Source: Candidatus Limnocylindrales bacterium
GTDB lineage: Bacteria; Chloroflexota; Limnocylindria; Limnocylindrales; CSP1-4
Assembly: GCA_038325875.1 (NCBI GenBank)
Contig: JBBQJL010000001.1
Location: forward strand, 50,881-114,880
Reading direction: 5' to 3'
Length of the DNA stretch: 64,000 nucleotides
Below the pieces are notes generated by a model. The model was not told the origin of the DNA. It made no database searches and saw only the letters and a program-made list of their open reading frames with translations. A program made the position numbers and the translations under genes. Of the stretch, positions 6,218 through 49,282 are shown in pieces (positions within the stretch are counted from its first letter, which is position 1; the number at the start of each line of letters is the position of its first letter).

Positions 6218-6238
6218 CCTCTAACCCTTGACCTTCGC

Positions 6239-6269: not shown

Positions 6270-6405
6270 GTGCTTCAGCTCTGCCGCCGGCGCCGTCCGG
6301 ACGCAGGCCCCGACCGAGGTCCGCGGTGACCGACTCCTGCCGGGGGATCGTCGAGTCGATCCCCAACTCGACAATCAGCCCGTTCCTGACAGCCGGTGAC
6401 CCTCA

Positions 6406-8542: not shown

Positions 8543-8546
8543 CCGC

Positions 8547-9644
8547 TTGACTGGCCCCGTTCCTCCGGTCGACGCTCCCGGCATCGTCGCTCCCGCCGCG
8601 GACCCTGCCGGTCGCGGGCGTCCGCTCCTGGATGTGCGCGACCTGCGGACCTACTTCCACGTGATGGACGGTGTGGTTCGGGCCGTCGACGGCGTCAGCT
8701 TCTCGATCATGCCCGGCGAGACGCTCGGCATCGTGGGTGAGTCGGGCTGCGGCAAGAGCGTGACTTCGCTGTCGATCATGCGCCTGCTGGACATGCCGCC
8801 CGCTGAGATCCCGAGCGGGCAGATCCTGTTCGAGGGGCGCGACCTGCTGACCCTGCCGGACGAGGAGATGCGCAAGGTCCGCGGCAATGACATCGCGATG
8901 ATCTTCCAGGAGCCGATGACCAGCCTCAACCCGGTGTTCACCGTCGGTGACCAGATCGCCGAAGCGGTCATCGAGCACCAGGACCTGTCCAAGAAGGCTG
9001 CCTGGGACAAGGCCATCGAGTCGATCAAGGCGGTCGGGATCAACAACCCCGAACGGCGGGTCAAGCAGTACCCGCACGAGCTGTCGGGCGGGATGCGCCA
9101 ACGGGTGATGATCGCGATGGCCCTGTCGTGCGATCCGAAGCTGCTCATCGCCGACGAGCCGACGACGGCCCTGGACGTGACCATCCAGGCCCAGATCCTG
9201 GAGCTGATCCGCGAGGTCCAGGATCGGACGGGGGCGGCCCTGATGCTGATCACCCACGATCTCGGCGTGGTCGCCGAGACGGTCAAGGACGTCGTCGTGA
9301 TGTACGCCGGACGGATCGTCGAGGAGGGCAGCGTCGAGGAGGTGCTGCTGGCACCCAAGCACCCCTACACCGAGGGGCTGCTCGGATCCATCCCGTCGCG
9401 CGGGAAGCGCGGTGTGCGCCTGAACGTCATCCGCGGCACGGTCCCGAACCCGTTCAACATGCCACCCGGCTGCAACTTCGCGCCGCGCTGCCCGTATGCG
9501 TTCGAGCCGTGCGGCCCGAACGACCCCCACATCCTCGATGCCAGCCCGCCCGATGTCGCCTGCTGGCTGTATACGGCGGCGCCGGGCTCGCCGACGCCAC
9601 CTCGGGTCCGACCGCGGCTCGATCTCGTCGAGGCCCTCGGGTGA
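8547..9644 (+). CDS. ABC transporter ATP-binding protein (DppD/OppD-like), operon 1
   Basis: Walker A GESGCGKS, signature LSGGMRQR, Walker [13 protein letters not shown], and the C-terminal oligopeptide-ABC Cys motif. The TTG start at 8547 is uncertain. Confidence 0.85.
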
Positions 9645-10864
9645 CGTTCGAGCCGACCGGATCGCCGACCGCCGCAGGCTCGATGTCAGCGACGACGAGC
9701 GCGCCTGTGCGGCCGGCGCCGTCCGAGCGCCCGCTGATCGAGGTCGAGGGCCTGGTCAAGTACTACCCGATCGTCGGCGGTTTCCTGCGCCGCCACGTCG
9801 GCGACGTCAAGGCCGTCGACGGGGTCAGCTTCTGGGTCAACCACGGGGAGGTGTTCGGGCTCGTCGGCGAGTCCGGTTGCGGCAAGTCGACCCTCGGCAA
9901 GACGCTCATCCAGCTCCAGCCGCCGACGGCCGGGGTGGCCAGGCTCGACGGCGAGCCGATCTTCGACAAGAAGGGCAAGGAGCTCAAGCGGCTCCGCCGC
10001 CGGATGCAGATCATCTTCCAGGATCCGGTCGGGTCGCTGAACCCGCGGATGCCGATCAGCGATATCATCGGCGAGGGGCTATTGGCCCAGGCGGATGCCG
10101 ACAACAAGTGGGGCGACCGGAAGGTCCGCGACAAGCGGGTCGCGGATTACCTGGATGCGGTCGGCCTGCGGCGCGACTACACCCGGCGCTATCCGCACGA
10201 GTTCTCGGGCGGCCAGCGTCAGCGCATCGGGATCGCTCGGGCGCTCGCCCTCAGCCCCGACTTCCTGATCTGCGACGAGCCGGTCTCGGCACTCGACGTG
10301 TCGATCCAGAGCCAGATACTGAACCTGCTCCTCGACCTTCGGCGCGAGTTCGATCTGACCTACCTGTTCATCGCTCATAACCTGTCCGTGGTCCAGTACA
10401 TCAGCGATCGGGTCGGGGTGATGTACCTCGGCAAGCTGGTCGAGCTGGCGGAGGTAGATGAGCTGTACCGACGTCCTCGACATCCCTATTCAGTGGCTCT
10501 GCTGTCGGCGGTCCCGGATGCGAACCCGCGGATCCGCAAGAAGCGCCTGGTCCTGACCGGCGACGTCCCATCGCCGGCGGCGCCCCCGTCAGGCTGTCGG
10601 TTCCACACTCGGTGCTGGCTGTTCGAGCGGCTGGGGAGACCCGAGGACTGCACGACGGTCGATCCGGAGTTCCGCGACATCGGCGACGGCCACTTGGTCG
10701 CCTGCCACCATGCCGAGGAGGTGCCGACGGCGGTCGTCGCGGCCGCGGTCCCGACCGCGGAAGTGACGCTCGACACCGTGGCGATGCCGTCCGCCGGATC
10801 ACCGGCGGAACCGTCCGACGATGCCGGTCTGCCGGCGGTGGACGCCCCGGCGAGCGGCACCTGA
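9641..10864 (+). CDS. ABC transporter ATP-binding protein (DppF/OppF-like), operon 1
   Basis: The GTG at 9641 overlaps the DppD stop (GTGA). It has Walker [10 protein letters not shown], signature FSGGQRQR and Walker [12 protein letters not shown]. There is a roughly 60-aa low-complexity C-terminal tail. Confidence 0.8.
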
Positions 10865-10964
10865 GTATCATGCCGGGGTCGGCGAGGACCGACCCGGCCG
10901 GAAACGGTCGGGCTGGAGGAGGTCTCGCCGGCCCGGGCACAGCCATAGGAGGAGAACGAACCGC

Positions 10965-12689: not shown

Positions 12690-12696
12690 CCGTGAC

Positions 12697-12765
12697 GACA
12701 CCGGCTCTCACGCCGGTGTCGCTCAGCTGACTCGCACGACCCCGGGGCCTTCGGGCCCCGGGGTC
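12697..12765 (+). terminator. Two tandem perfect hairpins after the SBP2 gene (intra-operon stem-loops)
   Basis: GACACCGGC-tctcac-GCCGGTGTC at 12697-12720, and GACCCCGGGGCC-ttcg-GGCCCCGGGGTC at 12738-12765. Confidence 0.4.
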
Positions 12766-12798
12766 CATTCCCTCAGCCGGACGGGGTGATTCGCGCCC

Positions 12799-13803: not shown

Positions 13804-14696
13804 TGGCGACGACCGCCGTCCCCGTCCGGGCGACCGCTCCGACGCGAGCCAGCCGCGGCCTGTGGCGGGACGCCCTGGTTCGCCTGCGGCGCAACCGCCC
13901 GGCGATGGTCGGGCTGGGGTTCATCGCCGTCTTCGTGGCGGTCGCCTTCCTGGCTCCGCTCCTCGCCCCATACGATCCCAACAAGCTCGGCCTCGGCAAG
14001 TCATTCGAGCCGCCCTCGCCGAGTCACCTGGCCGGTCTCGACAAGCTCGGCCGCGATGAGCTCAGCCGGGTCTTCTATGGCGCCCGGGTGAGCCTGATCG
14101 TCGGGATCGTGTCGGTCACCGTCGGCCTGACGATCGGCGGCTTCGTCGGTGCCCTGGCGGGCGGCTTCGGCGGGCGGATCGACACGATCCTGATGCGGAT
14201 GACCGACGTGTTCCTGGCCATCCCCGGGATCCTGCTGGCGATCGGGATCGTGGCCTGGCTCGGTCAGGGCCTGCCCCAGATCATGATCGCGGTGGCGGTC
14301 GCCAACGCCCCGATCTTCGCCCGGATCCTGCGCGGCAGCCTGCTCTCGCTGCGCGAGGCGGAGTTCGTGACCGCCGCCCGCTCGATCGGGGCGAGCAAGA
14401 GCCGCATGCTCATGCGCCACATGCTCCCGAACGCACTGACCGCACTCATCGTGGCGGCCACCCTGGCCCTGGCCACGGCCATCATCGACGTGGCCGGCCT
14501 GGGCTTCCTCGGGCTCGGGCCGCCCGATCCGCGGACCGCCGAGTGGGGGACGATGCTGACCGACTCGACCGAGGCGCTGCGTCGCGCGCCGTGGCTCATC
14601 TTCGCCCCGGGGCTGGCCATCGTCATCAGCGCGATCGGGTTCAACCTGCTCGGGGACGGGTTGCGTGAGTCGCTCGATCCGCGGTTGAAGCGATGA
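13803..14696 (+). CDS. ABC transporter permease (DppC-like), operon 2
   Basis: The ATG at 13803 overlaps the stop (TGATG). The protein reads [10 protein letters not shown]...[18 protein letters not shown] and carries the EAA-loop [22 protein letters not shown]. Confidence 0.8.
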
Positions 14697-16000
14697 GCGC
14701 GCTCGCCGGGCCGACCGACTCGAAGGCGACGACCGGGGGGGCGTCTACGACCGGCCCGAACCCCGAGGCGCTCCTGTCGGTCGAGGACCTGGTCGTCCGG
14801 TTCCGGACCCAGGACGGCTCGATCTTCGCGGTCAACGGGGTCAGCTTCGACGTGGCCCCCGGCGAGACACTCGGCCTGGTCGGCGAATCCGGCTGTGGCA
14901 AGAGCGTCACCAACCTGGCGATCATGCGCCTTCTGCCGAAGCCGGCCGGTCGGATCGAGGGCGGCCGGATCTGGTTCGACGGGGTCGACCTCGCGGCGAT
15001 CTCGGAGAACGAGATCCGGGACATCCGCGGTCGCGATGTGGCGATGATCTTCCAGGATCCGATGACCAGCCTGAACCCGGTCCTGACCATCGAGGAACAG
15101 ATGGTCGAGACGATCCGGGCCCATCGGACGACGACCAAGGAGGCCGCCCGGGATCGGGCCATCGAGATCCTGGTGACGGTCGGCATCTCGGATGCCGAGG
15201 CCCGTCTGAAGTCTTTCCCCCACCAGTTCTCGGGCGGGATGCGCCAGCGGGTGATGATCGCCATGGCGCTGGCCCTCGAGCCACGGCTGATGATCGCCGA
15301 CGAGCCGACCACGGCCCTCGACGTGACGATCCAGGCCCAGGTCCTCGAGCTGCTCCAGCGGCTGACGACCGAGACGGGGACCGCGATGATCCTGATCACC
15401 CACGACCTCGGGGTGGTCGCCGGGATGACAATGCGGACCAACGTCATGTACGCCGGCTTCGTGGTCGAGACCGCCACCACGACCGAACTGTTCGCCAACC
15501 CGTCGCACCCGTACACGGTCGGCCTCCTCCACTCGATCCCGCGTGTCGACGCGGAGGCCGGGGAGGAGCTCATCCCGATCGAGGGCCGACCACCGGACCA
15601 GCGGGTCGAGCCATCGGGCTGTCCGTTCGCGCCGCGCTGCGCCTGGCGACTCGAGACGTGCTGGTCGGACAACCCGACCTCGACGACGGTCGAGCCCGGG
15701 GCTGCGCTCATCCGGACGGGACCGAACGCCACCCACCTGATCGCCTGCCACAACCCGCCGACGCACGAGGAAGCGCTGGCCGGTCGCCCGCTCCGGGAGG
15801 GCTTCGTAGCGGCCCCGCCGCCCGGCGGCGACGATGCCGGCGGAGGCCTCGACGAGCTGTCCACGCTCGATACCCTGGCGGCCTTCGAACCGCCGACCGG
15901 CGAGATGACCGGCCTCAGCGCGCGCGACGAAGCTCTCACCCTCAGTGGTCAAGACCACGGCCGCTATCCCGGCGATCCCGACAGGGGCGGCCTGCCATGA
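14693..16000 (+). CDS. ABC transporter ATP-binding protein (DppD-like), operon 2, with long C-terminal extension
   Basis: ATGA overlap at the start. Walker A GESGCGKS, signature FSGGMRQR and Walker [13 protein letters not shown] are present. A roughly 100-aa Gly/Pro/Asp-rich C-terminal tail follows. Confidence 0.85.
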
Positions 16001-17271
16001 CCGACGGCCTCGGAACGGTTCCGACAGCGTCGAGTGGGAGCGGTCGCGCGAGCGCGCCGTCGGCCGGGAACGGGTCCAACGGCGCCGCCGCGCCGCTGGT
16101 CAGCGTCCAGGACCTGCGGGTCTGGTTCCCGATCACGGACGGTCTCATCTTCGAGCGCCATATCGGCGACGTCCGGGCGGTCGACGGCATCGACTTCGAG
16201 ATCCGCCGCGGCGAGACGCTCGGGCTGGTCGGCGAGTCCGGCTGCGGCAAGAGCACGACCGGACGGGCGATCATCCGGCTGTACAAGCCGACGACCGGGT
16301 CGGTCAGCATCGACGGGACCGATCTCGCCCCGCTCGAGGGCTCCGATCTGCGCCGGATGCGCGGTCGGATGCAGATGATCTTCCAGGACCCCTACTCGAG
16401 CCTCAACCCGCGGATGAACGTGGCCGGCATCGTCGGCGAGCCGCTCGAGATCCACAACGTCGGGACGAAGACCGAGCGGGCGGACAAGGTCCGCGACCTG
16501 CTCGCGACGGTCGGTCTCAATCCCGACTTCGCGGAGCGCTATCCACACGAGTTCTCCGGCGGCCAGCGCCAGCGGATCGGGGTGGCCCGGGCGCTCGCCC
16601 TGAACCCGGACCTGATCGTCGCCGACGAGCCGATCAGCGCCCTCGACGTGTCGATCCAGGCCCAGATCATCAACCTCCTCGAAAAGCTCCAGAATCAGCT
16701 CGGCCTGACCTACCTGTTCATCGCCCACGACCTGTCGGTCGTCCGCCACATCAGCGACCGGATCGCGGTGATGTACCTCGGGCGGATCGTCGAGGTCGCG
16801 CCGTCGCGCGAGCTCAACCGGGAGCCCCTCCACCCGTACACGGTCGCCCTCCTGTCGGCCATCCCGATCCCGGATCCGGTGGTCGAGAGCCGGCGCCGCC
16901 GGATCATCCTGAAGGGCGACGTCCCGTCGCCGGCGGCGCCTCCGCCCGGCTGCCGGTTCCACACCCGCTGCTGGCTGCGCGAGCGCCTCGGCAACCCGGA
17001 ACGGTGCACCACCGAAGAGCCGGTCCTGCGCACGCTGTCGACCGGTCACGAGGTGGCGTGCCACTTCGCCGAGGAGGTCGCCGGCTCGGCCGAGCAGGTG
17101 CAGGCGACCGGTCGATCGGCGCACGGCGCCGCGCCCGCGGCCTCTGCCGGTCCGGGGGCTGCGGCAGCCGTGCCCGGAGCAGCGGCGCCCCGTCCCGACC
17201 TCGCGGACCTGCCCACGCCGCCGCCGGTCCCGCCAAGTGCGCCGCCGTCGGTGCCGACGCCGGGAAGCTGA
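15997..17271 (+). CDS. ABC transporter ATP-binding protein (DppF-like), operon 2
   Basis: The ATG at 15997 overlaps the stop. It has Walker [10 protein letters not shown], signature FSGGQRQR and Walker [12 protein letters not shown]. The C-terminal tail is Ala/Pro-rich. Confidence 0.85.
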
Positions 17272-21979: not shown

Positions 21980-22013
21980 GGGGCGGGCGCCCGAGGGGGA
22001 GAGCGCCCGCCCC
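21980..22013. terminator. Bidirectional GC-rich hairpin between the convergent methyltransferase and ssb genes
   Basis: GGGGCGGGCGC-ccgagggggaga-GCGCCCGCCCC, an 11-bp perfect stem. Confidence 0.4.
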
Positions 22014-22092
22014 GTCGCACGGGGAGGAGGGAAGCGTCGGTCGGTCGGCGGGTGCGGACCTACGATCGGCCGGCGGCGGGTCCGGCGTCTGA

Positions 22093-22518
22093 TCAGGCCG
22101 CCACGGACTCGTCAGGGATCGGGTCATCCGGACCCGGCTCGTCGACGAGCGTCTCAGCGTGGACCTCGAGCGCGTCGGCTGCGGCCTGGGCCTCGTAGTC
22201 CTTCTTCTTGCGCCCGGACAGCATCTCCACGTGGTTGGCCACGATCTCGGTCTTCCAGTGGCGCTTGCCGGCGTCGTCGTCCCAGGTGCGGGTCTGGATG
22301 CGGCCTTCGACGGCCACCTGCTGGCCCTTCCCGAGGTACTGGCCACAGACTTCGGCAAGCTTGTCCCAGGTGACGATCGTGTGGAATTCCGAGCGCTCCT
22401 TGCCACCTCCGGCGTATTCGTGCGATGCGACGTTGAACGTGGTGACGTTCTTGCCGCTGGCCAGGGCGCGCAGCTCCGGGTCTCGGGTGAGCCGCCCGGT
22501 CAACAGGACCTTGTTCAT
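22093..22518 (-). CDS. ssb: Single-stranded DNA-binding protein paralog (stand-alone, non-canonical C-terminus)
   Basis: OB-fold SSB motifs: MNKVLLTGRLTRDPELR...FHTIVTW...GKGQQVAVEGRIQTRTWDD. A GAAGGAGAC RBS lies upstream on the minus strand. The protein ends ...DDPIPDESVAA rather than with the DDDIPF tip. Confidence 0.8.
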   Translation of the reverse strand: MNKVLLTGRLTRDPELRALASGKNVTTFNVASHEYAGGGKERSEFHTIVTWDKLAEVCGQYLGKGQQVAVEGRIQTRTWDDDAGKRHWKTEIVANHVEMLSGRKKKDYEAQAAADALEVHAETLVDEPGPDDPIPDESVAA

Positions 22519-22722
22519 CGGTCCGGGTCTCCTTCTCGGTCGGCCGGCGGCGCCGGTCCGACCCTGCGGTTGCGGCGGGTCGATCCCGACGGCCGGCGGG
22601 AGCCGACGGGCACGATGGACGGTAGTGATGCCCGCTCACCTGGGCATTCGCCGGCCCTTCACCAGGACTTACCGGGCCACCCGGCTTGCACGCGGGGCCG
22701 CGTCAGGCGGCAGCCTTCGCAA

Positions 22723-22769
22723 CTATCCGGGTCGGTGACGGATACCTGGCACCTATCCGGTCGGGACGG
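22723..22769. repeat. Imperfect direct repeat CTATCCGG(G)TCGG(T/G)GACGG x2 separated by 11 nt in the long non-coding region
   Basis: The two copies are at 22723-22741 and 22753-22769. The adjacent inverted repeat ATGGTCA-N8-TGACCAG at 22773-22794 contains CACGTG. Confidence 0.5.
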
Positions 22770-23379
22770 ACCATGGTCACGTGGATATGACCAGCATTGC
22801 TACCAGGCGGACTTCTGAGCGCTCAACCTCGCGATCGACCGGTGTCGACCGTCGTCATGGCGCGTCGGCGGTGACATTCAGGCACACAGAAGGCCCTCCC
22901 AACGTTGACGTCGGCGCTCAGCGTGAGAGCTAGTGTCCTGATTCATGATGCTCGGTAGGTAATCGCCCTCGCGCTCCCGGGTCCAGACGACCGAGGCGCA
23001 GGAGGTGGCGATCGTCCGCCGGGCCGAACTCTTCGTCCGTGAACTGAGCGACGGGGAGGCAGCCCACCTCCTCAGGCAGGCGCGCCGGGGCAGGAAGGCG
23101 GTCGTCCGACAACGCGGCCGATCAACCCGGGGCTCGAAAGCCGCATCACAATGCCGAGATTGTGCGCCGAGCGTGACACGGTGGGGTGTCGGGGTCTGGC
23201 GCGCCAGCGCGGTCTCCGGTCCACGAGCGCCGCCTCTCCTGACGGAGGCGACCTACCGGAACGGTGAGGCGACGACCCCATGATAGGGTGGCTGGGCTTG
23301 GGCGTCGGAGGACCTCCGCGCCCCTGCAGCCGCGGCGTCCACATGGTGGTGCCCGAACTATGGCACCGAGGTCAGCTGC

Positions 23380-24336
23380 ATGACATTCGATGTCCACGTC
23401 GTCCACGACGACCCTGAGGTGGCCCCGGCTCGCCGTGGCTCGCGAGCGTGGCGCGTTCTCCGGCGCAACCCGACATTCTGGTTCGGCGCGACCGGCGTCG
23501 TATGTATCGTGGCGGCGGCCCTGTTCGCGCCCATCATCACGCCCCATGATCCCAACATCGCCTTCCGGCGCGAGGGGCTCACCGCCGCAGGCGACCCGGT
23601 CGGCCCGAGCGCGCTGTTCCCGCTGGGTACCGACGAGCTAGGACGGGATTACCTGAGCCGGCTCCTCCATGGGGCTCGTACCTCGCTCACCGTCGGGATC
23701 GTGGCCAACTTCCTCGCGACGGCCATCGGGCTCGCGGTCGGGTCGATCGCGGCCTTCGCCCGAACCCCTCGGCTCCGGTTCGGCATGGTGCGCGGTCGCA
23801 GCCTGGAGATCCCGATCCCCGTCGAAAACATCCTGATGCGGACCACGGACGCCGTGCTGTCCTTTCCCGTGCTGCTGCTGGCGATCGCGCTGGTGGCCAT
23901 CGTCGGTCCAAGTCTCGGCCTCGTGATCGTGGTCATCGCGGCCGTCCTGTGGACCTCGACGGCGCGGATCATCCATTCGCGGGTGGTGGTTATCCGCGAG
24001 GCGGACTTCATCGAGGCAGCCCGGGCGGTCGGCGTCGCCCCGATACGGATCTTGATTCGGCATATCCTGCCGCACCTCGTGCCGATCGTCGCCGTCTACG
24101 CGACCCTCGGCATCGCTTCCACAGTCCTCTTCGAGGCGACGCTGTCGTTCCTGGGGGTCGGCGTCCCCGTCCCCGCCGCGTCATGGGGCGGGATGATCTT
24201 CGAGCACATCGGGTACTACAAGAGCGATCCGCGCGTCGTCGTCCTGCCCGGCCTGGCGATCATGCTCACGATCCTTTCGTTCAACCTCCTCGGCGACGCG
24301 TTGGCCGATGCGTTCGACCCTTTTCACTGGCGGTAA
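23380..24336 (+). CDS. ABC transporter permease (DppC-like) of an ATPase-less third peptide-ABC-like cluster
   Basis: It has TM segments and an EAA loop (AARAVGVAPIRILIRHILPHLVP). A roughly 30-aa insertion (RTPRLRFGMVRGRSLEIPIPVENILMR) is absent from the paralogs at 7532 and 13803. Confidence 0.75.
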   Translation: MTFDVHVVHDDPEVAPARRGSRAWRVLRRNPTFWFGATGVVCIVAAALFAPIITPHDPNIAFRREGLTAAGDPVGPSALFPLGTDELGRDYLSRLLHGARTSLTVGIVANFLATAIGLAVGSIAAFARTPRLRFGMVRGRSLEIPIPVENILMRTTDAVLSFPVLLLAIALVAIVGPSLGLVIVVIAAVLWTSTARIIHSRVVVIREADFIEAARAVGVAPIRILIRHILPHLVPIVAVYATLGIASTVLFEATLSFLGVGVPVPAASWGGMIFEHIGYYKSDPRVVVLPGLAIMLTILSFNLLGDALADAFDPFHWR

Positions 24337-24390
24337 AGCCGGGTAGCGGGCAAACCGCCCGCCCCCGGTCGCGACTCGGGAGGAGAGGTC

Positions 24391-26121
24391 ATGCACAACG
24401 GATCGACACGGCGGAGGGCCCTGTCATCGGTCGCGCTGATCGCGCTTGTCGCAGGTGCCTGCCAGCCAGCCGCTCCCAGGTTGGCATCCCCTGGCACGTC
24501 AGCCGGCGGAGCGACACCTCAGAGCCCGCCTGCCGGATCGAGCGCGGCGCCTGCCACGGGCGCGATCCCGCAGGGCGGCACCCTGTCAATCGCCTGGGCC
24601 AGCGATCTTCAGCATCTCGACCCGGCCGTCATGTACGACACCGTCGGGATCTCCGCCGTCCGGACGATGTTCGAGGCACCACTGAGCTATGACCTCACGT
24701 CCACTAAGCTCGTGCCACTCCTGGCGACCGCCCTACCGCTGATCTCGGCCGATGGCAAGACCTACACGCTCACGTTCCGTACAGGCGTGAAGTTCGTCAA
24801 CGAGGACGGGACAGTACTGCGCGAGATGACGGCCGACGACGTCGTCTACTCCCTCAATCGCGTTCTCGACCCCAACCTCAAGCCCACCCCGTCTCCGGTC
24901 GCGAGCGCGTTTTTCGGCAACATCGTCGGCGCTGCGGACGTGATCGGCGGTAAGGCGAAGACTGCCTCGGGGATCAAGATGATCGACGCGTCGACCGTCG
25001 AGATCGACCTCGTCAACGCGGACGCGACCTTCAGCAACATCCTCGCAACGACGTTCGCGTCGGTCGTCCCGAAGGAAGTCGCCGGCGAGGATACGGCGGC
25101 CTTCGATGCGAAGCCGGTCGGCACTGGGCCGTACCTGTTGAAGTCCTACACCAAGGGCCAGCAGGCCACGTTCGTCGCCAACAAGAGTTACTGGCGGGCC
25201 GGCCAACCGTATCTCAACGAGATCGACTTCAAGGTCGGGGTCGACGATAACGCCGCCATCCAGCAAATCGAAGCTGGAACCCTTGACCTCATGGGCGACA
25301 CGCTGCCGAGCGGTTCGTTCACCCAGATCACGACCGATCCGGCAACCAAGGACCAGGTTGTTCACCACGGCCTCGTCGATACCCAGTACCTGTGGATGGA
25401 CACAGCGCAGCCGGACAGCGGCCCGCTGTCAAAGGTCGCGGTCCGCCAGGCGATCGAGTATGCAATCGACAAGGACAACATCCTGAAGATCGTCCACGGC
25501 GCCGGGACCCGGGCCGAGTGCATCTTCCCGACGGATCTACCCGCCTTCGATCCGGCCTGCCACCCGTACAGCTTCGACGTGCCCAAGGCCAAGCAGATGC
25601 TGACGGACGCCGGCTACTCCGACGGCTTCAGGACCACGCTGTACACGGATACGACGGATCCCGACCCGAAGGTCGCGGCCGCGCTCCAGCAGGACCTGGC
25701 TGCTATCGGCATCACCGCCGATGTCGTAACCCAGTCCTTCGACACATTCCTGACCACCATCCAGACGCCCCATGCGGCCCCGATGGGATATGTCGGCTGG
25801 TACCAGGACTATCCCGACCCGTCCGACTTCATCGACCCGATTCTGTCCTGTGCTTCGGCGGTCAAGGGCGGGGCGAACCAGGCGTGGTACTGCAACAAGC
25901 AGGTCGATGCCCAGGCGGCCGCGGCCCGAGGCGAGGTCGACTCGAGCAAGCGTCTGTCCGAGTACCAGGCGATCCAGAACCAGATCATGACCGACGCGCC
26001 TTGGGTGCCGCTCTACTTCCAGGAGCACTACACCCTCGTCGGAAAGCGGGTGGGCGGCTTCACCATCCACCCCGTCTATCTCTATTCGTTGCGGGATGTC
26101 TACATCAAGCCGGGTTCGTGA
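24391..26121 (+). CDS. Family-5 substrate-binding lipoprotein, third cluster
   Basis: A GGGAGGAGAGG RBS precedes the start. The protein reads MHNGSTRRRALSSVALIALVAGAC with a lipobox and is about 576 aa. Confidence 0.8.
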   Translation: MHNGSTRRRALSSVALIALVAGACQPAAPRLASPGTSAGGATPQSPPAGSSAAPATGAIPQGGTLSIAWASDLQHLDPAVMYDTVGISAVRTMFEAPLSYDLTSTKLVPLLATALPLISADGKTYTLTFRTGVKFVNEDGTVLREMTADDVVYSLNRVLDPNLKPTPSPVASAFFGNIVGAADVIGGKAKTASGIKMIDASTVEIDLVNADATFSNILATTFASVVPKEVAGEDTAAFDAKPVGTGPYLLKSYTKGQQATFVANKSYWRAGQPYLNEIDFKVGVDDNAAIQQIEAGTLDLMGDTLPSGSFTQITTDPATKDQVVHHGLVDTQYLWMDTAQPDSGPLSKVAVRQAIEYAIDKDNILKIVHGAGTRAECIFPTDLPAFDPACHPYSFDVPKAKQMLTDAGYSDGFRTTLYTDTTDPDPKVAAALQQDLAAIGITADVVTQSFDTFLTTIQTPHAAPMGYVGWYQDYPDPSDFIDPILSCASAVKGGANQAWYCNKQVDAQAAAARGEVDSSKRLSEYQAIQNQIMTDAPWVPLYFQEHYTLVGKRVGGFTIHPVYLYSLRDVYIKPGS

Positions 26122-26159
26122 TTCGGTCGTGACCCAGCCCGACAGACCGAGGCTGCAAC

Positions 26160-26183
26160 GAGGGGCAGTTCACACGGCCCCTC
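26160..26183 (+). terminator. Stem-loop after the SBP3 gene
   Basis: GAGGGGC-agttcacacg-GCCCCTC. Confidence 0.3.
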
Positions 26184-26202
26184 CCGCGACCTGGCGAGCG
26201 GC

Positions 26203-27144
26203 GTGATCGGCTACGTGATCCGCAGGGTCGGCTGGGCCGCGCTGGTGCTGTTCGCCGTCACGCTCCTCACTTTCGTGCTCATCTACGTTCTGCCGGCTGA
26301 TCCCGCTCGGCTCATCGCGGGTCGGCAGGCGCGCCCCGAGGATGTGGCGGCGATTCGACATGCGCTGGGGCTCGACCAACCATTCCCCGTCCAGCTCGCG
26401 ACCTACGTCGCGCGCATCCTTCATGGGGACTTCGGCCATTCCTACCATCAGAACATCGACGTCCTGCCGCTCCTGCTCCAGCGGTTCCCGGCGACTCTGC
26501 AATTGGCCATCGCGGGTCTCGTCATGGAGCTCTTGATCGGCCTGCCGCTGGGCCTCGTCGCGGCGGCTCGCAAGGGGACATCGTCTGACCGGGCGGCGAC
26601 CATCATCACCGTGACCCTCGTGTCTGCGCCGTCGTTCTGGGTCGGATACCTCCTCCTCGAGGTCGTGTTCCAGGCACATGGCGCCGGCATCGATCTCTTC
26701 CCGGTCGGCGGCGGTTACAAGCCACTCGACCTGCGTTATCTGTTTCTCCCGGCGCTGACCCTCGGCTTCGGAGGCGCGGCCTACTACAGCCGGTTGATGC
26801 GGACGACGATGATCGAAGAGCTTCGGCGGGATTACATCCGGACCGGCCGGGCCAAGGGTGTGAGCGAGACGCGCCTACGCTTGCGCCATGCGCTTCGTAA
26901 CGGGATCGGCCCGATCCTGGTCCAGGTGGGTCTCGACTTCGGCTTCTTCCTCGGTGGCGTGGTCGTGGTCGAGCAGGTTTTCAGCTGGCCTGGGATCGGC
27001 AGACTGGCTGTCGAGTCGATCAGCACCGCAGACGTCCCGCTCATCATGGGCACGGTCATCTTCGGTACTGTCTGTATCGTCATTGCCAACCTGGTCATCG
27101 ATGTCGCAAACGCGATCATCGACCCGCGGATCAAGCTGGCCTAG
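26203..27144 (+). CDS. ABC transporter permease (DppB-like), third cluster
   Basis: GTG start. The protein reads MIGYVIRRVGWAALVLFAVTLLTFVLIYVLPADP... with TM segments. Confidence 0.8.
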   Translation: MIGYVIRRVGWAALVLFAVTLLTFVLIYVLPADPARLIAGRQARPEDVAAIRHALGLDQPFPVQLATYVARILHGDFGHSYHQNIDVLPLLLQRFPATLQLAIAGLVMELLIGLPLGLVAAARKGTSSDRAATIITVTLVSAPSFWVGYLLLEVVFQAHGAGIDLFPVGGGYKPLDLRYLFLPALTLGFGGAAYYSRLMRTTMIEELRRDYIRTGRAKGVSETRLRLRHALRNGIGPILVQVGLDFGFFLGGVVVVEQVFSWPGIGRLAVESISTADVPLIMGTVIFGTVCIVIANLVIDVANAIIDPRIKLA

Positions 27145-27151
27145 GGACGGG

Positions 27152-28111
27152 ATGACCTATTCCATCGTTGCTCGCGACCCGCTGACCGGCGACCTCGCGG
27201 TAGCCGTCCAGTCCAAGTTCCTGGCGGTCGGCTCGGTGGTTCCCTGGGCCCGGGCGGGGGTCGGCGCACTCGCCACTCAGTCGTTCGCCAACGTCGCATA
27301 CGGTCCGGATGGCCTCGGGCTCCTTGCCTCCGGCGCGGGGGCGACCGAGGCCCTCAGCGGTCTTGTCGCGGGCGATGCGATGGCCGATGAGCGCCAGGTC
27401 GGCATAGTGGACGCCTTCGGGCTGGGGGCCAGCTTTACCGGCAGAAGGTGTTTCATCTGGGCCGGCGGCCGGACCGGACCGGGCTTCGCCGCCCAAGGCA
27501 ACGTCCTTGCCGGACCGGCGGTGGTCGATGCGATGGTCGACACGTTCCTGGAGGGCTCGGGACGGTTCCCGGAACGGCTGGTGCACTGCCTTGCGGCAGC
27601 CGATGCGGCCGGCGGCGATCGGCGCGGGCGAGAGTCCGCGGCGCTCCTCGTCGTGCGCGAGGGCGGCGGCTATGGCGGCGGCAACGACCGGTGGATCGAC
27701 CTGCGGGTAGATGATCACGTCGACCCGATCGGTGAGCTGGCCAGATTGCTCGATCTGCAGCGCCTCTATCTCGACCCACCACTGGTGTCCGAACTCCTGG
27801 TGATCGACGCGACTCGGGCGGCGGACCTCCGCGCGATGCTTCGACGGGTCGGCGCGTTACCGGGAGATTGGACCGCAGCAATATTGGCGCCCGGGTCCGA
27901 ATCGAACGAAAACGATTCGCAGCAAACTTCACGCCCGGCAGTCGGCGAACCGCGGCCTTTTACGCCCGGCTGGGACGCCAGCTGGCACCAGGCGCTTGCG
28001 GACTGGATGGGCATCGAGAATCTGGAGGAGCGGCTGGCGGCACCTGGCTGGATCGATCCGCGGGTCCTCGCGATCCTGGCCGAGAAGGCAGCGGCAGGGC
28101 GATCGTCGTGA
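27152..28111 (+). CDS. DUF1028-family Ntn-hydrolase-like protein (N-terminal Thr nucleophile) with a C-terminal putative peptidoglycan-binding-like region
   Basis: The N-terminus reads MTYSIVARDPLTGDLAVAVQSKFLAVGSVVPWA, the canonical DUF1028 start with Thr2. The start lies 8 nt after the permease stop. Confidence 0.75.
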   Translation: MTYSIVARDPLTGDLAVAVQSKFLAVGSVVPWARAGVGALATQSFANVAYGPDGLGLLASGAGATEALSGLVAGDAMADERQVGIVDAFGLGASFTGRRCFIWAGGRTGPGFAAQGNVLAGPAVVDAMVDTFLEGSGRFPERLVHCLAAADAAGGDRRGRESAALLVVREGGGYGGGNDRWIDLRVDDHVDPIGELARLLDLQRLYLDPPLVSELLVIDATRAADLRAMLRRVGALPGDWTAAILAPGSESNENDSQQTSRPAVGEPRPFTPGWDASWHQALADWMGIENLEERLAAPGWIDPRVLAILAEKAAAGRSS

Positions 28112-31100
28112 CGCTCCGTTGTCCGAGCTGCGCGACCGACAGTCCGGCTGGGACCAAGTTCTGCCCGGAGTGCGGGGCGCGTCTCGACGCCGGCCGACCA
28201 GGGTCGCAGGAGGTCCGACGGACGGTCACCGTCCTGTTCTCCGACGTGACCGGCTCGACCGCCCTCGGCGAGCGCCTCGACCCCGAATCGCTCCGCTCGA
28301 TCATGAACCGGTACTTCGGGGCGATGAAGGTCGTCATCGAGCGCCACGGTGGGACGGTCGAGAAGTACATCGGTGACGCGATCATGGCGGTCTTTGGGCT
28401 GCCGACCGTCCACGAGGATGATGCCCTCCGTGCCGTACGGGCGGCTTCGGAGATGGGATTCGCCCTGACCGCGCTCAACGCCGAGCTTGCGCACGACCGT
28501 GGGATGACGATCACGACCCGAACTGGCATCACGACGGGCGAGGTCGTCGCGGGCGACGCGGCCCACGGCACGCTCATCACGGGCGATACGGTCAACACCG
28601 CGGCCCGGCTCGAGCAGGCGGCCCCTCCCGGCCAGATCCTCCTGGGGCGCCCGACGTGGCAGCTGGTCCGCGACGCAGTCGAGGTCGAGCCGCTCGAGCC
28701 GATGGCGGCAAAGGGCAAGGCCGCACCGCTGGCCGCCTTCCGACTCATCTCGATCGACCCAGGCGCGGACGCCCACACCCGTCGGCTCGATGGTCCGATG
28801 GTCGGACGTGCCCGTGAGCTCGGCCGGCTCGAACAGGCCTTTCGCCAGACGGTCGCCGATCGCTCCTGCCAGCTCTTCACGCTGCTCGGCTCAGCGGGCG
28901 TCGGGAAGAGCCGCCTCACCGGTGAGTTCATCACGGGCGTCGGTGTCGAGGCGACGGTGCTCAAGGGACGCTGCCTCCCGTACGGCGAGGGGATCACATA
29001 CTGGCCACTCGGTGAGGTCGTCCGCGCGGCCAGTGGCATCGATGAGCGCGATGCACCAGAGGTCGCCGTGGCCAGGCTCGCCGGGCTGCTTGAGGGGGAG
29101 CAGGACGAGGAGGTCCTTACCCGTCGCGTCGCGGTGGCCATCGGACTCGAGCTCGCTGCCGCGACCCAGGAGGAGATCTTCTGGGCGACGCGCAGGCTCT
29201 TCGAGCGTCTCGCACGAACTCGGCCGTTGGTCGTCGTGTTCGAGGACATCCATTGGGCTGAGGCGACGTTCCTCGACCTCATTGAGCACGTCGCCGACTT
29301 GTCGAGGGACGCGCCACTCCTCCTCCTCTGCCCGGCTCGCCCGGAGCTTCTGGACCGACGGCCCACCTGGGGTGGCGGCAAGCTCAACGCGACGACGATC
29401 CTGCTCGAGCCATTGCCCGCGGAGGCGACTCGGGAGCTCATCGATCAGCTGCCCGGCGGCGAAGCGCTGCCGTCAGCGCTCCGGAGTCGAATCCTGGATG
29501 CGGCGGAGGGCAACCCCCTCTACCTCGAGGAGATGCTAGCGATGTTGGTCGACGATGGTCTCGTCAACCAGACGGACGGCGCTTGGGTCGGTGCGGCCGA
29601 GGTGGCCGAGGTTCGCGTCCCACCGACGATCCAGGCGCTCCTCGCAGCGCGGCTCGACCAGCTCGATCCCGAGGAGAGGGCCGTCGCCGAACGGGCGTCC
29701 GTGGTCGGTCGGGTGTTCGAACAGGCGGCGGTCATCGAGCTTGCCTCGGTCGCGCTCCGACCGGAAGTCGCGCGGAGCCTGGTCGCGCTGGTCCGAAAGG
29801 AGCTCGTTCGTCCAGACCGATCCGAGTTGTCGGTAGGCGATGCATTCAAATTCCGCCACATCCTGATCCGCGACGCGGCGTATGAGGCGCTCCCGAAGTC
29901 GGATCGGGCCGAGCTCCATGAACGGTTCGCGAATTGGCTCGAGCGCACGGCGAGTGAACGTATCAGGGAATACGAGGAGATTCTCGGCTACCACCTGGCC
30001 CAGGCGCACCGCTATCGGACGGAGTTGGGTGAAAGCGGTGAGCGAGTCGAACGACTGGCAGAGCTGGCAGCCGGGCGCCTGGCGGCGGCCGGGGTGCGTG
30101 CGTTCGACCGCGGCGACATGTCGGGTGCCCCAGGGCTGCTCGCGGCGGCGACGGATCTCTATCCTCGGGGATCGACACGACGCCTCGAGCTGGCCGCCGA
30201 CCGCAGCTTCGCCCTCTTCTCGGCCGGCCGGGTTCGCGATGCCCAGGCCACGCTCGCCGAAGCCATCAGCGAGGCGGACTCGTTCGGGCTCCTGGCCTTC
30301 GCGACGCGATCGCGCCTCGATGCGAGCCTCCTGCAGATCATCTCGGCCGGAGAGTACCGGCAAGTCAGCGAGACGGCGAAACTCGCTATCCCAATACTCG
30401 AGAAGGACGGGGACGACTCCGGCCTTGGCAAAGCTTGGCTCGTACTTGCGAATGCGGCGTGGCAAGCTGGTCAAGCGGAGGCGGCCATCGCCGCCCGGAG
30501 TCGGGCCGACGAGTACGCCCGGCGAGCCGGTGACCGGCGGTCCGATCGGTGGACGACCTTCTGGGGCGCCGAGTGCTACGGACCGGCCCCGGCCGCAGCG
30601 ACCATCCGGGCTCTCGAGAAGATGCATGCTGCCGCCCAGGGCGACCCATTGCGACAATCCAAGCCGCTGTTCTCTCTGGCCGGACTGTATGCCATGCGAG
30701 GTCGGGTCGCCGATTCCCGGCGGGCATATCGGGATCTGCGGCGGATCTTCGTGGATCTCGGGATGAGTGTCCTCGTCGCCGCCGCGGCCGAGATAGCAGG
30801 CGTTGCCGAACTGGTGGGGGAGGACGCGCGGGCGGCCCAAGCTGCCCTCGAGGAAGGGATCCTGGGCATGGAAGACCTCGGGGCGGCCGCCTACCTCTCG
30901 ACTCTGCTGGGGATCAAGGCGATCGCGCTGGCTCGGCTGGGTGAGAACCAAGGAGCATTGGATGCCGCCGATCGCGCGGTCCGCGAGGGGTCGAACGAGG
31001 ACGTCCTGCTCCATGTCTTTTCGAACACGGCTCGCTCGATCGCGTTCCTTGCGATGACCGACGCCCGATCGTCGATCGAGGCGGGAAGGGAGGCGATCAG

Positions 31101-31296
31101 ATGGGCGGAATCGACCGACTTCGTGAGCTTCCACGCCGACGCCCGCCTCGCGCTCGGGGCTGCCCTTCGAGCGGAGCGTGCCGAGACCGAAGCCGCCCAG
31201 TCGGCGTCCCGCGCGCTACAGCTGTACGCGGCGAAGGGCAACTTGATCGGTGCGCGCGCGGCGCGCGTCTTCATCGAGCGCGCGGATGAGCGATGA
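28108..31296 (+). CDS. Multidomain signalling protein: double zinc ribbon - class III adenylyl/guanylyl cyclase - STAND/AAA ATPase - TPR-like helical repeats (1062 aa)
   Basis: The GTG at 28108 overlaps the DUF1028 stop (GTGA). The zinc ribbon is CPSCATDSPAGTKFCPECG. The cyclase core reads VTVLFSDVTGSTAL...KYIGDAIMAVFG...GDTVNTAARLE. The P-loop is LLGSAGVGKSRL. The C-terminal half is a long helical/TPR-like region. Confidence 0.8.
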   Translation: MTLRCPSCATDSPAGTKFCPECGARLDAGRPGSQEVRRTVTVLFSDVTGSTALGERLDPESLRSIMNRYFGAMKVVIERHGGTVEKYIGDAIMAVFGLPTVHEDDALRAVRAASEMGFALTALNAELAHDRGMTITTRTGITTGEVVAGDAAHGTLITGDTVNTAARLEQAAPPGQILLGRPTWQLVRDAVEVEPLEPMAAKGKAAPLAAFRLISIDPGADAHTRRLDGPMVGRARELGRLEQAFRQTVADRSCQLFTLLGSAGVGKSRLTGEFITGVGVEATVLKGRCLPYGEGITYWPLGEVVRAASGIDERDAPEVAVARLAGLLEGEQDEEVLTRRVAVAIGLELAAATQEEIFWATRRLFERLARTRPLVVVFEDIHWAEATFLDLIEHVADLSRDAPLLLLCPARPELLDRRPTWGGGKLNATTILLEPLPAEATRELIDQLPGGEALPSALRSRILDAAEGNPLYLEEMLAMLVDDGLVNQTDGAWVGAAEVAEVRVPPTIQALLAARLDQLDPEERAVAERASVVGRVFEQAAVIELASVALRPEVARSLVALVRKELVRPDRSELSVGDAFKFRHILIRDAAYEALPKSDRAELHERFANWLERTASERIREYEEILGYHLAQAHRYRTELGESGERVERLAELAAGRLAAAGVRAFDRGDMSGAPGLLAAATDLYPRGSTRRLELAADRSFALFSAGRVRDAQATLAEAISEADSFGLLAFATRSRLDASLLQIISAGEYRQVSETAKLAIPILEKDGDDSGLGKAWLVLANAAWQAGQAEAAIAARSRADEYARRAGDRRSDRWTTFWGAECYGPAPAAATIRALEKMHAAAQGDPLRQSKPLFSLAGLYAMRGRVADSRRAYRDLRRIFVDLGMSVLVAAAAEIAGVAELVGEDARAAQAALEEGILGMEDLGAAAYLSTLLGIKAIALARLGENQGALDAADRAVREGSNEDVLLHVFSNTARSIAFLAMTDARSSIEAGREAIRWAESTDFVSFHADARLALGAALRAERAETEAAQSASRALQLYAAKGNLIGARAARVFIERADER

Positions 31297-31682
31297 AGAG
31301 GCCTGAACATGGACAACCCGGAGGATCCTGGGTCTAGCTGTTCTTCCCCGTCAGGGTTGTTGCCGGGCACGCGGCTCATCGGTGGCTGCCCGGTGAGTGA
31401 CCAATGCGGTCGGCGTCGATTGTCGAAGTCGATGAAGCGGGCGAGACTGGCGACCCATGCGCCGGGTTCGGTGGACGGCTCGGCCCAGCCCCGCCGCCAG
31501 CCCCGCCGACGACCCGCAGTCAGCCGCTGCTATACTGCCCTGGTCTCGGAACGCGGGCACAGACCCGCCGCACGGAGATCGGCCCATCGCTCGAGGAACG
31601 TTCGCCCCGTGAGACGAACGCCCAACGATCCGGGGATCGCCGGAACGCCGGCGTCTCGACGAAGGGAGCAGTCTATCCGGGT

Positions 31683-31710
31683 CCTCGGCCACTCGGCCGG
31701 GGCCTTTTTC
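31683..31710 (+). terminator. Terminator-like hairpin + U-run inside the purA 5' leader (candidate attenuator/riboswitch expression platform)
   Basis: CUCGGCC-acuc-GGCCGGG (7 bp with one G-U pair) followed by GCCUUUUUC. The element ends 45 nt before the purA ATG, and the leader is 458 nt long. Confidence 0.35.
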
Positions 31711-31754
31711 ATCCCCGACCTGGGCCACCGCGGCCAGCTAGAGGCGTTCGCCTG

Positions 31755-33068
31755 ATGCCGGCCACCGTCATCGTCGGATTGCAATGGGGCGACGAAGGGA
31801 AGGGCAAGACCACCGACTTCCTGGCCGAACAGGTCGCCATGGCCGTCCGCTACCAGGGCGGCGACAACGCCGGCCACACGGTCGTCCTCGGCGACGAGGT
31901 GTTCAAGCTCCGGCTGACCCCGTCGGGCGTGCTCTACCCGCACATCTCCAGCGTCATCGGGGCCGGTGTCGTGGTCAATCCGGCGACCCTCATCGGTGAG
32001 CTGGACATGCTGACCTCGCGCGGGATCGACACGGGCAAGGTCCGCGTCAGCCGCAATGCCCACGTGATCATGCCCTACCACGTTGCGCTCGATGGGGCGA
32101 TGGAGGCGCGCCTCGACGGCGAGAAGGTCGGCACCACGAACCGCGGGATCGGCCCGACCTACGCCGATCGCGCGTCGCGCCTCGGCCTGCGGATGGAGGA
32201 CCTCCTCGACGAGGCGACCTTCCGCCACCGCCTGGCCAAGGTGCTGCCCGACAAGAACACCCTGCTCGCGACGATGCCCGGCGCCACCCGGTTCGAGGCC
32301 GAGCCGCTGGTCGCCCAGGCGATGGCCTGGGGTGAGCGCCTCCGTCCGCACCTCGCCGACACGACCTGGCTGGTCCAGGACGCCCTGCGCCGCGGTGACC
32401 ACGTCCTGCTCGAGGGCGCCCAGGGCACGCTCCTCGACATCGACCATGGCAGCTACCCGTATGTCACCTCGTCGAACCCGATCGCCGGCGGCGCCTGCAC
32501 CGGCGGCGGGATCGGGCCGCTCCAGGTCGACGAGGTCATCGGGGTCATGAAGGCGTACACGACCCGGGTCGGCTCGGGTCCCTATCCGACCGAGTTGACC
32601 GACGAGGTCGGGGCGGGCATCGCCGAGCGCGGCCACGAATTCGGGACGGTGACCGGACGACCCCGCCGGGTCGGCTGGTTCGACGCGGTCGCGCTGCGCT
32701 TCGCCGTCGCCATCAACAGCGTGAGCAGCATCATGCTGAACAAGATCGACATCCTGTCCGGGATCGACGAGATCCGGCTGTGCGTCGCCTATGAGATCGA
32801 CGGGCAGCGCCTCGAGCAGTGGCCGTCGAGCGCCGAGGTCTTGAGCCGGGCGCGCCCGATCTACGAGCGGTTCCCGGGCTGGACGGAAGAGATCAACGGG
32901 GTCCGGACCCTGGCCGAGCTGCCGGAGAACGCGCGGCGCTACGTCACGGCGCTCGAGGTGGCCGCCGGCGTTCCGATCGTCCTCGTGTCGGTCGGGCCGG
33001 AGCGGACCCAGACGATCGAGCGGGCGTATCGCCCGATGCGCCATCGGCCGACGGTCCCGGCCGGATGA
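31755..33068 (+). CDS. purA: Adenylosuccinate synthetase
   Basis: MPATVIVGLQWGDEGKGKTTDFL...GGDNAGHTV...TTNRGIGPTYADR. These motifs are unambiguous. Confidence 0.9.
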   Translation: MPATVIVGLQWGDEGKGKTTDFLAEQVAMAVRYQGGDNAGHTVVLGDEVFKLRLTPSGVLYPHISSVIGAGVVVNPATLIGELDMLTSRGIDTGKVRVSRNAHVIMPYHVALDGAMEARLDGEKVGTTNRGIGPTYADRASRLGLRMEDLLDEATFRHRLAKVLPDKNTLLATMPGATRFEAEPLVAQAMAWGERLRPHLADTTWLVQDALRRGDHVLLEGAQGTLLDIDHGSYPYVTSSNPIAGGACTGGGIGPLQVDEVIGVMKAYTTRVGSGPYPTELTDEVGAGIAERGHEFGTVTGRPRRVGWFDAVALRFAVAINSVSSIMLNKIDILSGIDEIRLCVAYEIDGQRLEQWPSSAEVLSRARPIYERFPGWTEEINGVRTLAELPENARRYVTALEVAAGVPIVLVSVGPERTQTIERAYRPMRHRPTVPAG

Positions 33069-47702: not shown

Positions 47703-47720
47703 GCCGATGCCGATGACCGC

Positions 47721-49216: not shown

Positions 49217-49282
49217 CCGCCGGTCTCGCCTTCACTCGCTTGGGCCCTCGCCTTGACAGCGGCCGCCCGGCTGAGTACAGTT

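Follow-up and report, generated by a model that had tools for sequence, protein, structure and literature searches.

A conserved peptide-type importer block without ATPase genes, ending in a predicted DUF1028 hydrolase and overlapped by a cyclase-STAND gene

Gene content of the locus and conservation of the block

We analysed a group of five genes carried by a 64,000-nucleotide stretch of DNA from a Candidatus Limnocylindrales bacterium; this whole stretch is called the window below, and all positions refer to it. The five open reading frames (ORFs) are co-directional and lie on the + strand, from 23380 to 31296. The first three encode components of an ATP-binding cassette (ABC) importer of the peptide/opine/nickel (PepT) type, the fourth a predicted N-terminal nucleophile (Ntn) hydrolase of the DUF1028 family, and the fifth a large protein combining a nucleotidyl cyclase with a STAND NTPase. 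The first four genes are referred to as the block. An earlier note on this DNA had described the five genes of 23380-31296 and an atypical order, in which the solute-binding protein (SBP), a lipoprotein, is encoded between permease C and permease B. The ORF list and the Pfam matches bear this out:

permC: 23380..24336, + strand, OppC/DppC-type permease C of a PepT ABC importer; first gene of the block
SBP: 24391..26121, + strand, family-5 solute-binding lipoprotein (Pfam SBP_bac_5, E=2e-82)
permB: 26203..27144, + strand, OppB/DppB-type permease B (Pfam BPD_transp_1_N and BPD_transp_1)
DUF1028: 27152..28111, + strand, predicted cytoplasmic Ntn-hydrolase with a C-terminal PG_binding_2 domain; last gene of the block
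cyclase-STAND: 28108..31296, + strand, zinc ribbon, class III nucleotidyl cyclase, STAND P-loop NTPase and TPR-like solenoid; GTG start, 1062 aa

Permease C matched Pfam OppC_N (E=1e-10) and BPD_transp_1 (E=9e-25), and its best NCBIfam match was Opp4C, under the cut-off of that model. Permease B matched BPD_transp_1_N (E=1e-21) and BPD_transp_1 (E=4e-39). The SBP has a PROSITE-type lipobox (..LVAGAC), with a Pro/Ala/Ser linker after it. The block thus contains the family-5 SBP and the two distinct permeases, one of OppB and one of OppC type, of a PepT importer. The two oligo_HPY ATPases that belong beside such permeases are missing, since Pfam revealed no ATPase gene in 23380-31296. The absence of ATP-binding genes from this transporter (cluster 3) and the presence of two complete ATPase pairs upstream had both been claimed in the earlier note, and both were found by Pfam.

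We compared the window proteins by tblastn with 80 DUF1028 loci, 1.27 Mb in total. The order permC-SBP-permB-DUF1028 was found at 61-77% identity in eight loci (L005, L013, L018, L022, L023, L028, L034 and L045), and cut by contig ends in three more (L037, L042 and L052), giving 11 species-level genomes of Chloroflexota type in all. Orthologues of permease C occupied the corresponding position in 9 loci (67-77% identity), while orthologues of permease B adjoined DUF1028 on its upstream side in 11 (65-74%). The block was also present, at 53-58% identity, on an ENA contig from a more distant lineage (L082). A variant was detected in a Chloroflexi metagenome-assembled genome (MAG; L012, 3650-10945), where the order is permC-SBP-permB-ATPase D-ATPase F-DUF1028 and the transporter is far more divergent (25-40% identity). 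In a neighbour-joining tree of DUF1028 proteins, the block-associated copies, including that of the distant L082, fell into at least four separate clades; the link between transporter and DUF1028 is thus either old or has been retained repeatedly, and selection maintains it. As the ATPase-less block is intact across genomes, the lack of ATPase genes is a stable feature and not a sign of decay. The closest DUF1028 loci in species-representative genomes were nearly all from Chloroflexota MAGs labelled Limnocylindrales, Limnocylindria or 'Chloroflexia', and one of them, L053, also has homologues of further window genes. A high-GC Chloroflexota genome is therefore the most likely source of the window, rather than an actinobacterial one as assumed in the earlier note.

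A different arrangement was seen in Limnocylindria-type MAGs (L016, L020, L025, L035, L048 and others, around 5500-12300). There DUF1028 usually lies between CoxG, which ends a Fer2-MoCoBD-XdhC-CoxG molybdoenzyme cluster, and a 212-aa metallo-beta-lactamase-fold (MBL) gene, after which comes an ECF sigma factor. In three loci (L005, L022 and L023) CoxG and DUF1028 are separated by the inserted ABC block. No remnant of the CoxG, MBL, XdhC or MoCoBD flanking genes was detected in the window by tblastn.

The cyclase-STAND protein and its possible link to the block

For the 1062-aa protein, the domain order zinc ribbon (DZR), cyclase, P-loop NTPase and TPR had been proposed. Pfam recovered the first three (Guanylate_cyc, E=1e-22; AAA_16, E=1e-19; zinc-ribbon models weakly, E about 1e-3). 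No significant Pfam match to TPR was obtained in the C-terminal 510 aa; this part of the proposal stands on structure prediction. The full-length AlphaFold model (pLDDT 85.5) contains, besides the zinc ribbon, the cyclase and the P-loop domain, a helical/winged-helix region and a solenoid, the last made of about 11 helix pairs over residues 645-1061 with pLDDT around 90. When this model was searched with Foldseek, CyaC, Cya2 and CyaB matched the cyclase domain, and the STAND-TPR structure 6MFV was matched over 828 alignment columns (E=2e-11). The model and the match to 6MFV together support a predicted C-terminal TPR-like solenoid, and homologues of the protein carry TPR_12 and TPR_MalT matches. 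No start other than the GTG at 28108 preserves the four zinc-ribbon cysteines (CPxC...CxxC), which are invariant in 37 homologues, and homologues align from residue 3-5 onward.

The presence of both metal-binding Asp residues and of the N/R transition-state motif was confirmed on alignment. D46 (FSDVTG) and D90 (IGDA), aligned to Cya2 and CyaB, as well as N163 and R167 in GDTVNTAARL, are invariant in the same 37 homologues. So is K86, at a purine-specifying position; the specificity residue aligned with it is Glu in the guanylate cyclase Cya2 and Lys in the form of Cya2 engineered into an adenylate cyclase (6FHT). Because of this lysine the protein is probably an adenylate cyclase, ATP being the likelier substrate. 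The second purine-specificity position could not be placed, the loop being 2-4 residues shorter; T158 is invariant there and T155 frequent. In the NTPase, Walker A (GSAGVGKS) starts at 261 and Walker B (VVVFED) at 375, with G264, G266, K267, S268 and D380 invariant. From the architecture of the family, cyclase activity would probably be gated by nucleotide-dependent oligomerisation of the STAND part in response to a ligand of the TPR region.

The plan of the protein recalls two known systems. The mycobacterial Mclx proteins Rv0386, Rv1358 and Rv2488c combine a cyclase homology domain (CHD) with an AAA/NB-ARC part and a LuxR helix-turn-helix (HTH) (PMC4452763). Like them, the window protein has an N-terminal class III cyclase followed by a P-loop NTPase of STAND type in one soluble polypeptide of ~1000 aa. 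It differs in its N-terminal zinc ribbon, in ~420 aa of C-terminal TPR-like helical hairpins and in the Lys kept at the purine-specifying position. Rv0386 reportedly uses Gln/Asn there. No LuxR/GerE HTH was matched in the C-terminal 510 aa at E<=10, the model continuing as helical hairpins to its end. The resemblance to Rv0386-type proteins without their HTH, noticed earlier, is therefore real, and the window protein is not itself an Mclx protein even though it is built on an equal plan. PH0952 of Pyrococcus horikoshii (6MFV) shares the STAND NTPase and TPR sensor, and the Foldseek match to it spans the NTPase, helical and TPR parts. However, PH0952 has neither a cyclase nor a zinc-ribbon output domain, the sequence identity is 14%, and the low TM scores (0.30/0.45) mean that the domain arrangement differs.

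More than 8000 database proteins match the cyclase-STAND protein at E<1e-20, and over 100 of them, of about 1060 aa and 47-61% identity, have an equal domain order. We know of no ligand identified for a member of this family. Some members are fused to TIR domains, as in P0015, a 1179-aa cyclase-AAA_16 homologue (53% identity) with TIR_2/PF08937 domains. Tandem or adjacent cyclase-STAND paralogues were seen in L001/L082, L084, L093, L096, L107, L118, L142, L160, L165 and L167.

The stop codon of DUF1028 had been said to overlap the GTG start of the cyclase gene, and the raw sequence agrees. The GTG (28108-28110) and the TGA (28109-28111) share a 4-nt GTGA overlap (cgtcGTGAcg). The earlier note had named an internal terminator between the two genes as a finding that would speak against their coupling; a sequence scan of 22000-31800 revealed no terminator-like site above chance between the block genes and the cyclase. 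In view of the overlap, the cyclase gene is probably co-transcribed with the operon. Such overlaps are nonetheless common in the window: among 33 co-directional neighbour pairs, about 10 overlap by 1, 4 or 8 nt, and 7 of these are of the 4-nt type (purB/purC and CN_hydrolase/NAD_synthase, for example). The GTGA overlap is thus weak evidence of shared function. A DUF1028 copy of 58% identity elsewhere (L053, 3600-14600) likewise overlaps an unrelated downstream gene, for an acyl-ACP thioesterase, by 4 nt.

We then looked at the genomic partners of both genes. A cyclase-STAND gene followed DUF1028 in none of the 74 loci having at least 1 kb of downstream sequence, nor in any of the 10 block-bearing loci having at least 2.4 kb. 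In the reverse comparison, DUF1028 was found near none of the cyclase relatives (41-58% identity) in 80 metagenomic loci, which total 0.77 Mb. The closest relatives of the cyclase, P0002 and P0003 (59-61% identity), lie between a DUF72 and a cupin gene; P0007, P0009 and P0011 are found in other contexts, often beside another cyclase paralogue. Conserved synteny of DUF1028 with the cyclase-STAND gene, which had been set beforehand as the test of a functional unit, is therefore largely absent from related loci.

The L082/L164 lineage is the sole loose echo of the arrangement. On ENA contig_45874 (L001/L082) two tandem cyclase-STAND genes lie 3.6 kb upstream of the block and a third lies downstream, after an opposite-strand PP2C gene. 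None of the three overlaps DUF1028, and not all adjoin the block. They are 66-67% identical mutually and 59-61% identical to the window protein, which groups in the cyclase tree with P0002/P0003 and not with them. L164 is syntenic with the L082 contig (permC 90% identical), so both are counted as one lineage. The surroundings in L082 include a Crp-like cyclic-nucleotide (cNMP)-binding regulator, an MFS-cNMP protein and a GAF protein. Homologues of these neighbours and of the PP2C, MGMT, HAD and thioesterase genes were sought by tblastn, and none was found in the 64-kb window. Beyond the discovery case, the co-occurrence of block and cyclase is thus suggestive at most, being a single event in a family whose paralogues are often clustered locally.

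These results bear on the proposal, made in the earlier note, that the five genes form one ligand-to-second-messenger module, in which the imported compound or the product of DUF1028 would be sensed by the TPR/STAND part and the cyclase would make cAMP or cGMP. The half of this proposal that joins the importer to DUF1028 was supported, by the 11 loci, by L082/L164 and by the L012 variant; the half that adds the cyclase was not, the pairing being found in 0/74, 0/10 and 0/80 cases. The co-directional genes, the overlap with no terminator-like site in between, and the intact catalytic set of the cyclase are what such a module would have. The cyclase paralogues and the cyclic-nucleotide, GAF and PP2C genes around the L082/L164 block, a neighbourhood that otherwise has nothing in common with the window, point the same way, as do a distant cyclase-STAND gene 3 kb from DUF1028 in L063 and small cyclases 2.5 kb away in L017, L033, L043 and L044. 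Against this stand the absence of the pairing from the informative block-bearing genomes and from the loci of both families, the placing of the nearest cyclase clade elsewhere in its genome, and the greater likeness of the L082 paralogues to each other than to the window protein, in what is one event without overlap. In addition, short overlaps are the norm in the window, which holds no homologue of the Crp-like or MFS cNMP-binding proteins of L082, and once the discovery case is set aside a single co-occurrence is statistically unconvincing. We consider such a module unlikely and weakly supported. Wiring of the block to cAMP signalling in two or more lineages, namely this genome and L082/L164, with the STAND-TPR cyclases sensing the imported compound or the DUF1028 product, appears somewhat less likely again. 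If true, nutrient import would be reported by a second messenger in those lineages. The cyclase-STAND-TPR family is extremely abundant in soil metagenomes. Under the signalling proposal, the locus would supply its first candidate ligand.

Since the cyclase pairing was not found in related genomes, tight gene packing is likelier than a new signalling device, and the position of the cyclase next to DUF1028 most likely reflects such packing rather than an obligatory functional partnership.

Two further observations concern cyclases near DUF1028. The small cyclases of L017, L033, L043 and L044 (about 13200-14300) are ~291-aa proteins with the cyclase domain only, encoded 2.3-3.3 kb downstream of DUF1028, with MarR (opposite strand) and GNAT genes in between. 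The cyclases also diverge far faster than their neighbours: those of L164 and L082 are 66-70% identical, the permC products 90%.

Predicted substrate, hydrolase and energy supply of the block

The closest solved relative of the SBP is MeAmi_SBP of Mesorhizobium (PDB 8UPI; 394 bits, E=9.5e-117). The runner-up PDB matches were GbpA (190 bits), DppA (about 166-174 bits) and MppA (110 bits). MeAmi_SBP takes L-amino-acid amides as ligands; its Tyr32, Trp410 and Asp413 hold the ligand backbone and alpha-amine, and an insertion before Met408 is held by the authors to exclude larger ligands (bioRxiv 10.1101/2024.02.22.581678). As the chain numbering of 8UPI equals the numbering of that paper, the pockets could be compared residue by residue. 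Tyr32 (Y82 in the window protein), Trp410 and Asp413 are retained in the window SBP. The remaining ligand contacts are changed: Trp34 is replaced by Thr, Trp435 by Ala, and 3 residues of the insertion before Met408 are absent. The same pocket pattern is common to 10/10 block-associated orthologues. We infer that the ligand would have a free alpha-amino group and sit in a pocket roomier than that of MeAmi_SBP; dipeptides, as well as amides of amino acids or of dipeptides, might fit.

The DUF1028 protein (MTYSIV...) matched the Pfam DUF1028 profile (PF06267, Ntn-hydrolase clan) over its full length, positions 1-193 of 193, with residues 2-196 (E=1e-71). A DUF1028 protein with Thr at position 2, as claimed earlier, was thereby confirmed. 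Thr2 comes immediately after the initiator Met, and all 30 aligned homologues have it; 2IMH, the only solved DUF1028 homologue (E=1e-16; a structural-genomics entry with no assigned function), has Thr at the corresponding place. Thr2 is presumed to be the nucleophile, judging from these alignments. No signal peptide is visible in the protein sequence. The family is large, with at least nearly 8000 matches at E<=1e-10.

With its invariant Thr2, no visible signal peptide and the ligand predicted for the SBP, DUF1028 would be the natural candidate for hydrolysing amide bonds in the cytoplasm, in the place of the MeAmi amidase, to which it is not homologous. In MeAmi operons such SBPs are paired with an FmdA_AmdA amidase (bioRxiv 10.1101/2024.02.22.581678). 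The block resembles these operons in joining a PepT-type importer with a putative cytoplasmic amide-bond hydrolase in one operon. It differs from them in the hydrolase, a DUF1028 Ntn-hydrolase instead of an FmdA_AmdA amidase, in its lack of ATPase genes, and in its hosts, Chloroflexota and not Gram-negative rhizobia. Among the five genes and their neighbours, Pfam revealed no FmdA_AmdA amidase, ANTAR or cytosolic periplasmic-binding-protein (PBP) regulator gene.

A precedent for an operon with a peptide-type importer and an Ntn amidohydrolase exists in E. coli. In iaaA-gsiABCD a glutathione importer of the PepT family is co-operonic with a cytoplasmic Thr-nucleophile Ntn-hydrolase, an isoaspartyl dipeptidase. 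IaaA belongs to the Asparaginase_2 family and not to DUF1028, however, and the gsi operon has its own ATPase and a gene order unlike that of the block.

The ATPases would then have to come from elsewhere. Two complete SBP-B-C-D-F clusters of canonical order lie back to back upstream of the block (4358-10864 and 10821-17271), so that three family-5 SBP systems are found within 27 kb of the window (clusters 1, 2 and 3). Their ATPase genes are:

ATPase pair D/F of upstream peptide ABC cluster 1: 8547..10864, + strand, Pfam ABC_tran and oligo_HPY on both ORFs
ATPase pair D/F of upstream peptide ABC cluster 2: 14693..17271, + strand, Pfam ABC_tran and oligo_HPY on both ORFs

The D/F pair of cluster 2 is 49-55% identical to the pair inside the C-SBP-B-D-F-DUF1028 cluster of L012. 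Both pairs are candidate in-trans energisers of the block. In the 2-10 kb flanks of the other loci bearing the block (11 orthologous blocks), no PepT-type ATPase was detected, only generic ABC ATPases of 25-33% identity. Among sugar (CUT1) importers, the sharing of one homodimeric ATPase, MsmX or MsiK, is documented (PMC7658222). Those systems likewise have permease and SBP gene sets without their own ATPase gene, whereas the PepT-type system of the window would need a D/F pair, presumably shared.

Taken together, we regard it as probable, though by no means certain, that the locus is a conserved uptake and hydrolysis operon with an incidentally co-transcribed sensor cyclase, a juxtaposition specific to this lineage. 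In the best reading of the block, the lipoprotein SBP would capture a small compound whose alpha-amino group is free; amino-acid amides, dipeptide-like amides and short peptides are the likeliest kinds. Its import through permeases B and C would draw on PepT-type ATPases from other loci, the candidates in this genome being the D/F pairs of clusters 1 and 2. In the cytoplasm, the DUF1028 Ntn-hydrolase would then cleave the amide bond of the small amino-terminal amide or peptide, with Thr2 as nucleophile.

Several points weigh against this reading. The SBP pocket departs from that of MeAmi_SBP by the loss of Trp34, Trp435 and part of the insertion, so amino-acid amides are only a lead. The precedent for ATPase sharing comes from sugar importers only (PMC7658222), and in-trans supply in the PepT family would be an extension by analogy. 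A full-text literature search for DUF1028 returned no functional study and no DUF1028 protein with a demonstrated activity. The AlphaFold model of the DUF1028 protein (pLDDT 66.6) was of too low quality to be compared with the alpha-beta-beta-alpha sandwich fold of Ntn-hydrolases, a probable cause being the narrow alignment of 30 sequences, all about 70% identical. Finally, the three cyclase-STAND paralogues within 4 kb of the block in the L082/L164 lineage hint at more than chance.

Another role for the block was considered, the recycling of cell-wall peptides: the importer would take up murein-derived peptides, DUF1028 would bind them through PG_binding_2 and cleave them, and the cyclase would be unrelated. 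This would fit the C-terminal PG_binding_2 domain (E=2e-7), which is carried by a cytoplasmic enzyme and which most close homologues still have, and also the presence of MppA, a murein-peptide binding protein, among the PDB relatives of the SBP. But the MppA score is well below that of 8UPI and also under those of DppA and GbpA, the peptidoglycan-binding role of PG_binding_2 is itself putative, and DUF1028 occurs in haloarchaea, which have no murein, though there the matches span residues 1-215 only and the C-terminal part is missing. We hold cell-wall recycling to be very improbable.

The uptake and hydrolysis reading would give a concrete, testable role to DUF1028, a family with a structure but no function in the searchable literature. 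The retention of the block in many soil Chloroflexota, with an SBP nearest to the only characterised amino-acid-amide binding protein, suggests that DUF1028 acts in the cytoplasm as amidase or peptidase on an amino-terminal amide that has been imported. As a peptide-type ABC importer that persists with no ATPase genes, the block is also a clean case pointing to shared ATPases beyond the sugar importers. The locus is of value mainly for this functional lead for DUF1028 and as an example of an ATPase-less peptide-type importer.

Neighbouring genes and surroundings

The upstream neighbour of the block is ssb, on the opposite strand, followed by a gap and then by permC; downstream of the cyclase-STAND gene lie purA, purB and purC. 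The gap is unusually long for so compact a genome:

gap upstream of permC: 22519..23379, no strand assigned, 860 nt, no recognisable gene

It presumably holds the promoter and leader of the operon. The scan of 22000-31800 yielded no promoter or terminator above shuffled expectation and no sigma-70-like site in the 860-nt gap, and an Rfam search of the entire window identified no RNA family, riboswitches included, upstream of permC. A transposase remnant in the gap was considered and found no support, six-frame Pfam analysis of 22519-23379 giving zero matches.

GC content is 0.65-0.665 over 24000-28000 and 0.69-0.73 in the flanks, and the GC content at third codon positions (GC3) of the block is somewhat below that of clusters 1 and 2. 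The lower GC may indicate that the history of the block differs from that of its surroundings. GC3 of the block ORFs is 0.78-0.87, typical of coding sequence. Two long minus-strand ORFs opposite the cyclase, 27960-29441 (493 aa) and 29536-31134 (532 aa), were rejected as genes, their codon-position GC pattern being that of high-GC shadow ORFs.

Two last explanations deserve hardly any credence. That the cyclase-STAND protein is a Pycsar- or Avs-type anti-phage sensor placed next to the transporter by chance, as its STAND-plus-repeats architecture, the TIR-fused homologue and matches of PADLOC PycC models to its cyclase domain (best E=1e-18) might suggest, is extremely improbable, since the PycC matches (66 bits) are weaker than that to the generic Pfam cyclase (81 bits) and reflect a shared fold only, no PADLOC model matches the STAND part, no effector gene is adjacent (the neighbours being DUF1028 and then the pur genes), and the family is huge and commonly forms tandem chromosomal paralogues. 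That cluster 3 is a decaying, non-functional transporter remnant which has lost its ATPases is just as hard to credit, for the missing ATPase genes, the featureless gap and the slightly lowered GC are outweighed by four intact, full-length ORFs with GC3 typical of coding sequence and, strongly, by the intact ATPase-less block in 11 further genomes at 61-77% amino-acid identity.

ABC cluster 2 is directly followed by CN_hydrolase (17289-18233) and NAD_synthase (18230-19117), two distinct genes that overlap by 4 nt and look like a split glutamine-dependent NAD synthetase. The L053 contig carries homologues of the window genes 46059-56645, at 61-90% identity.

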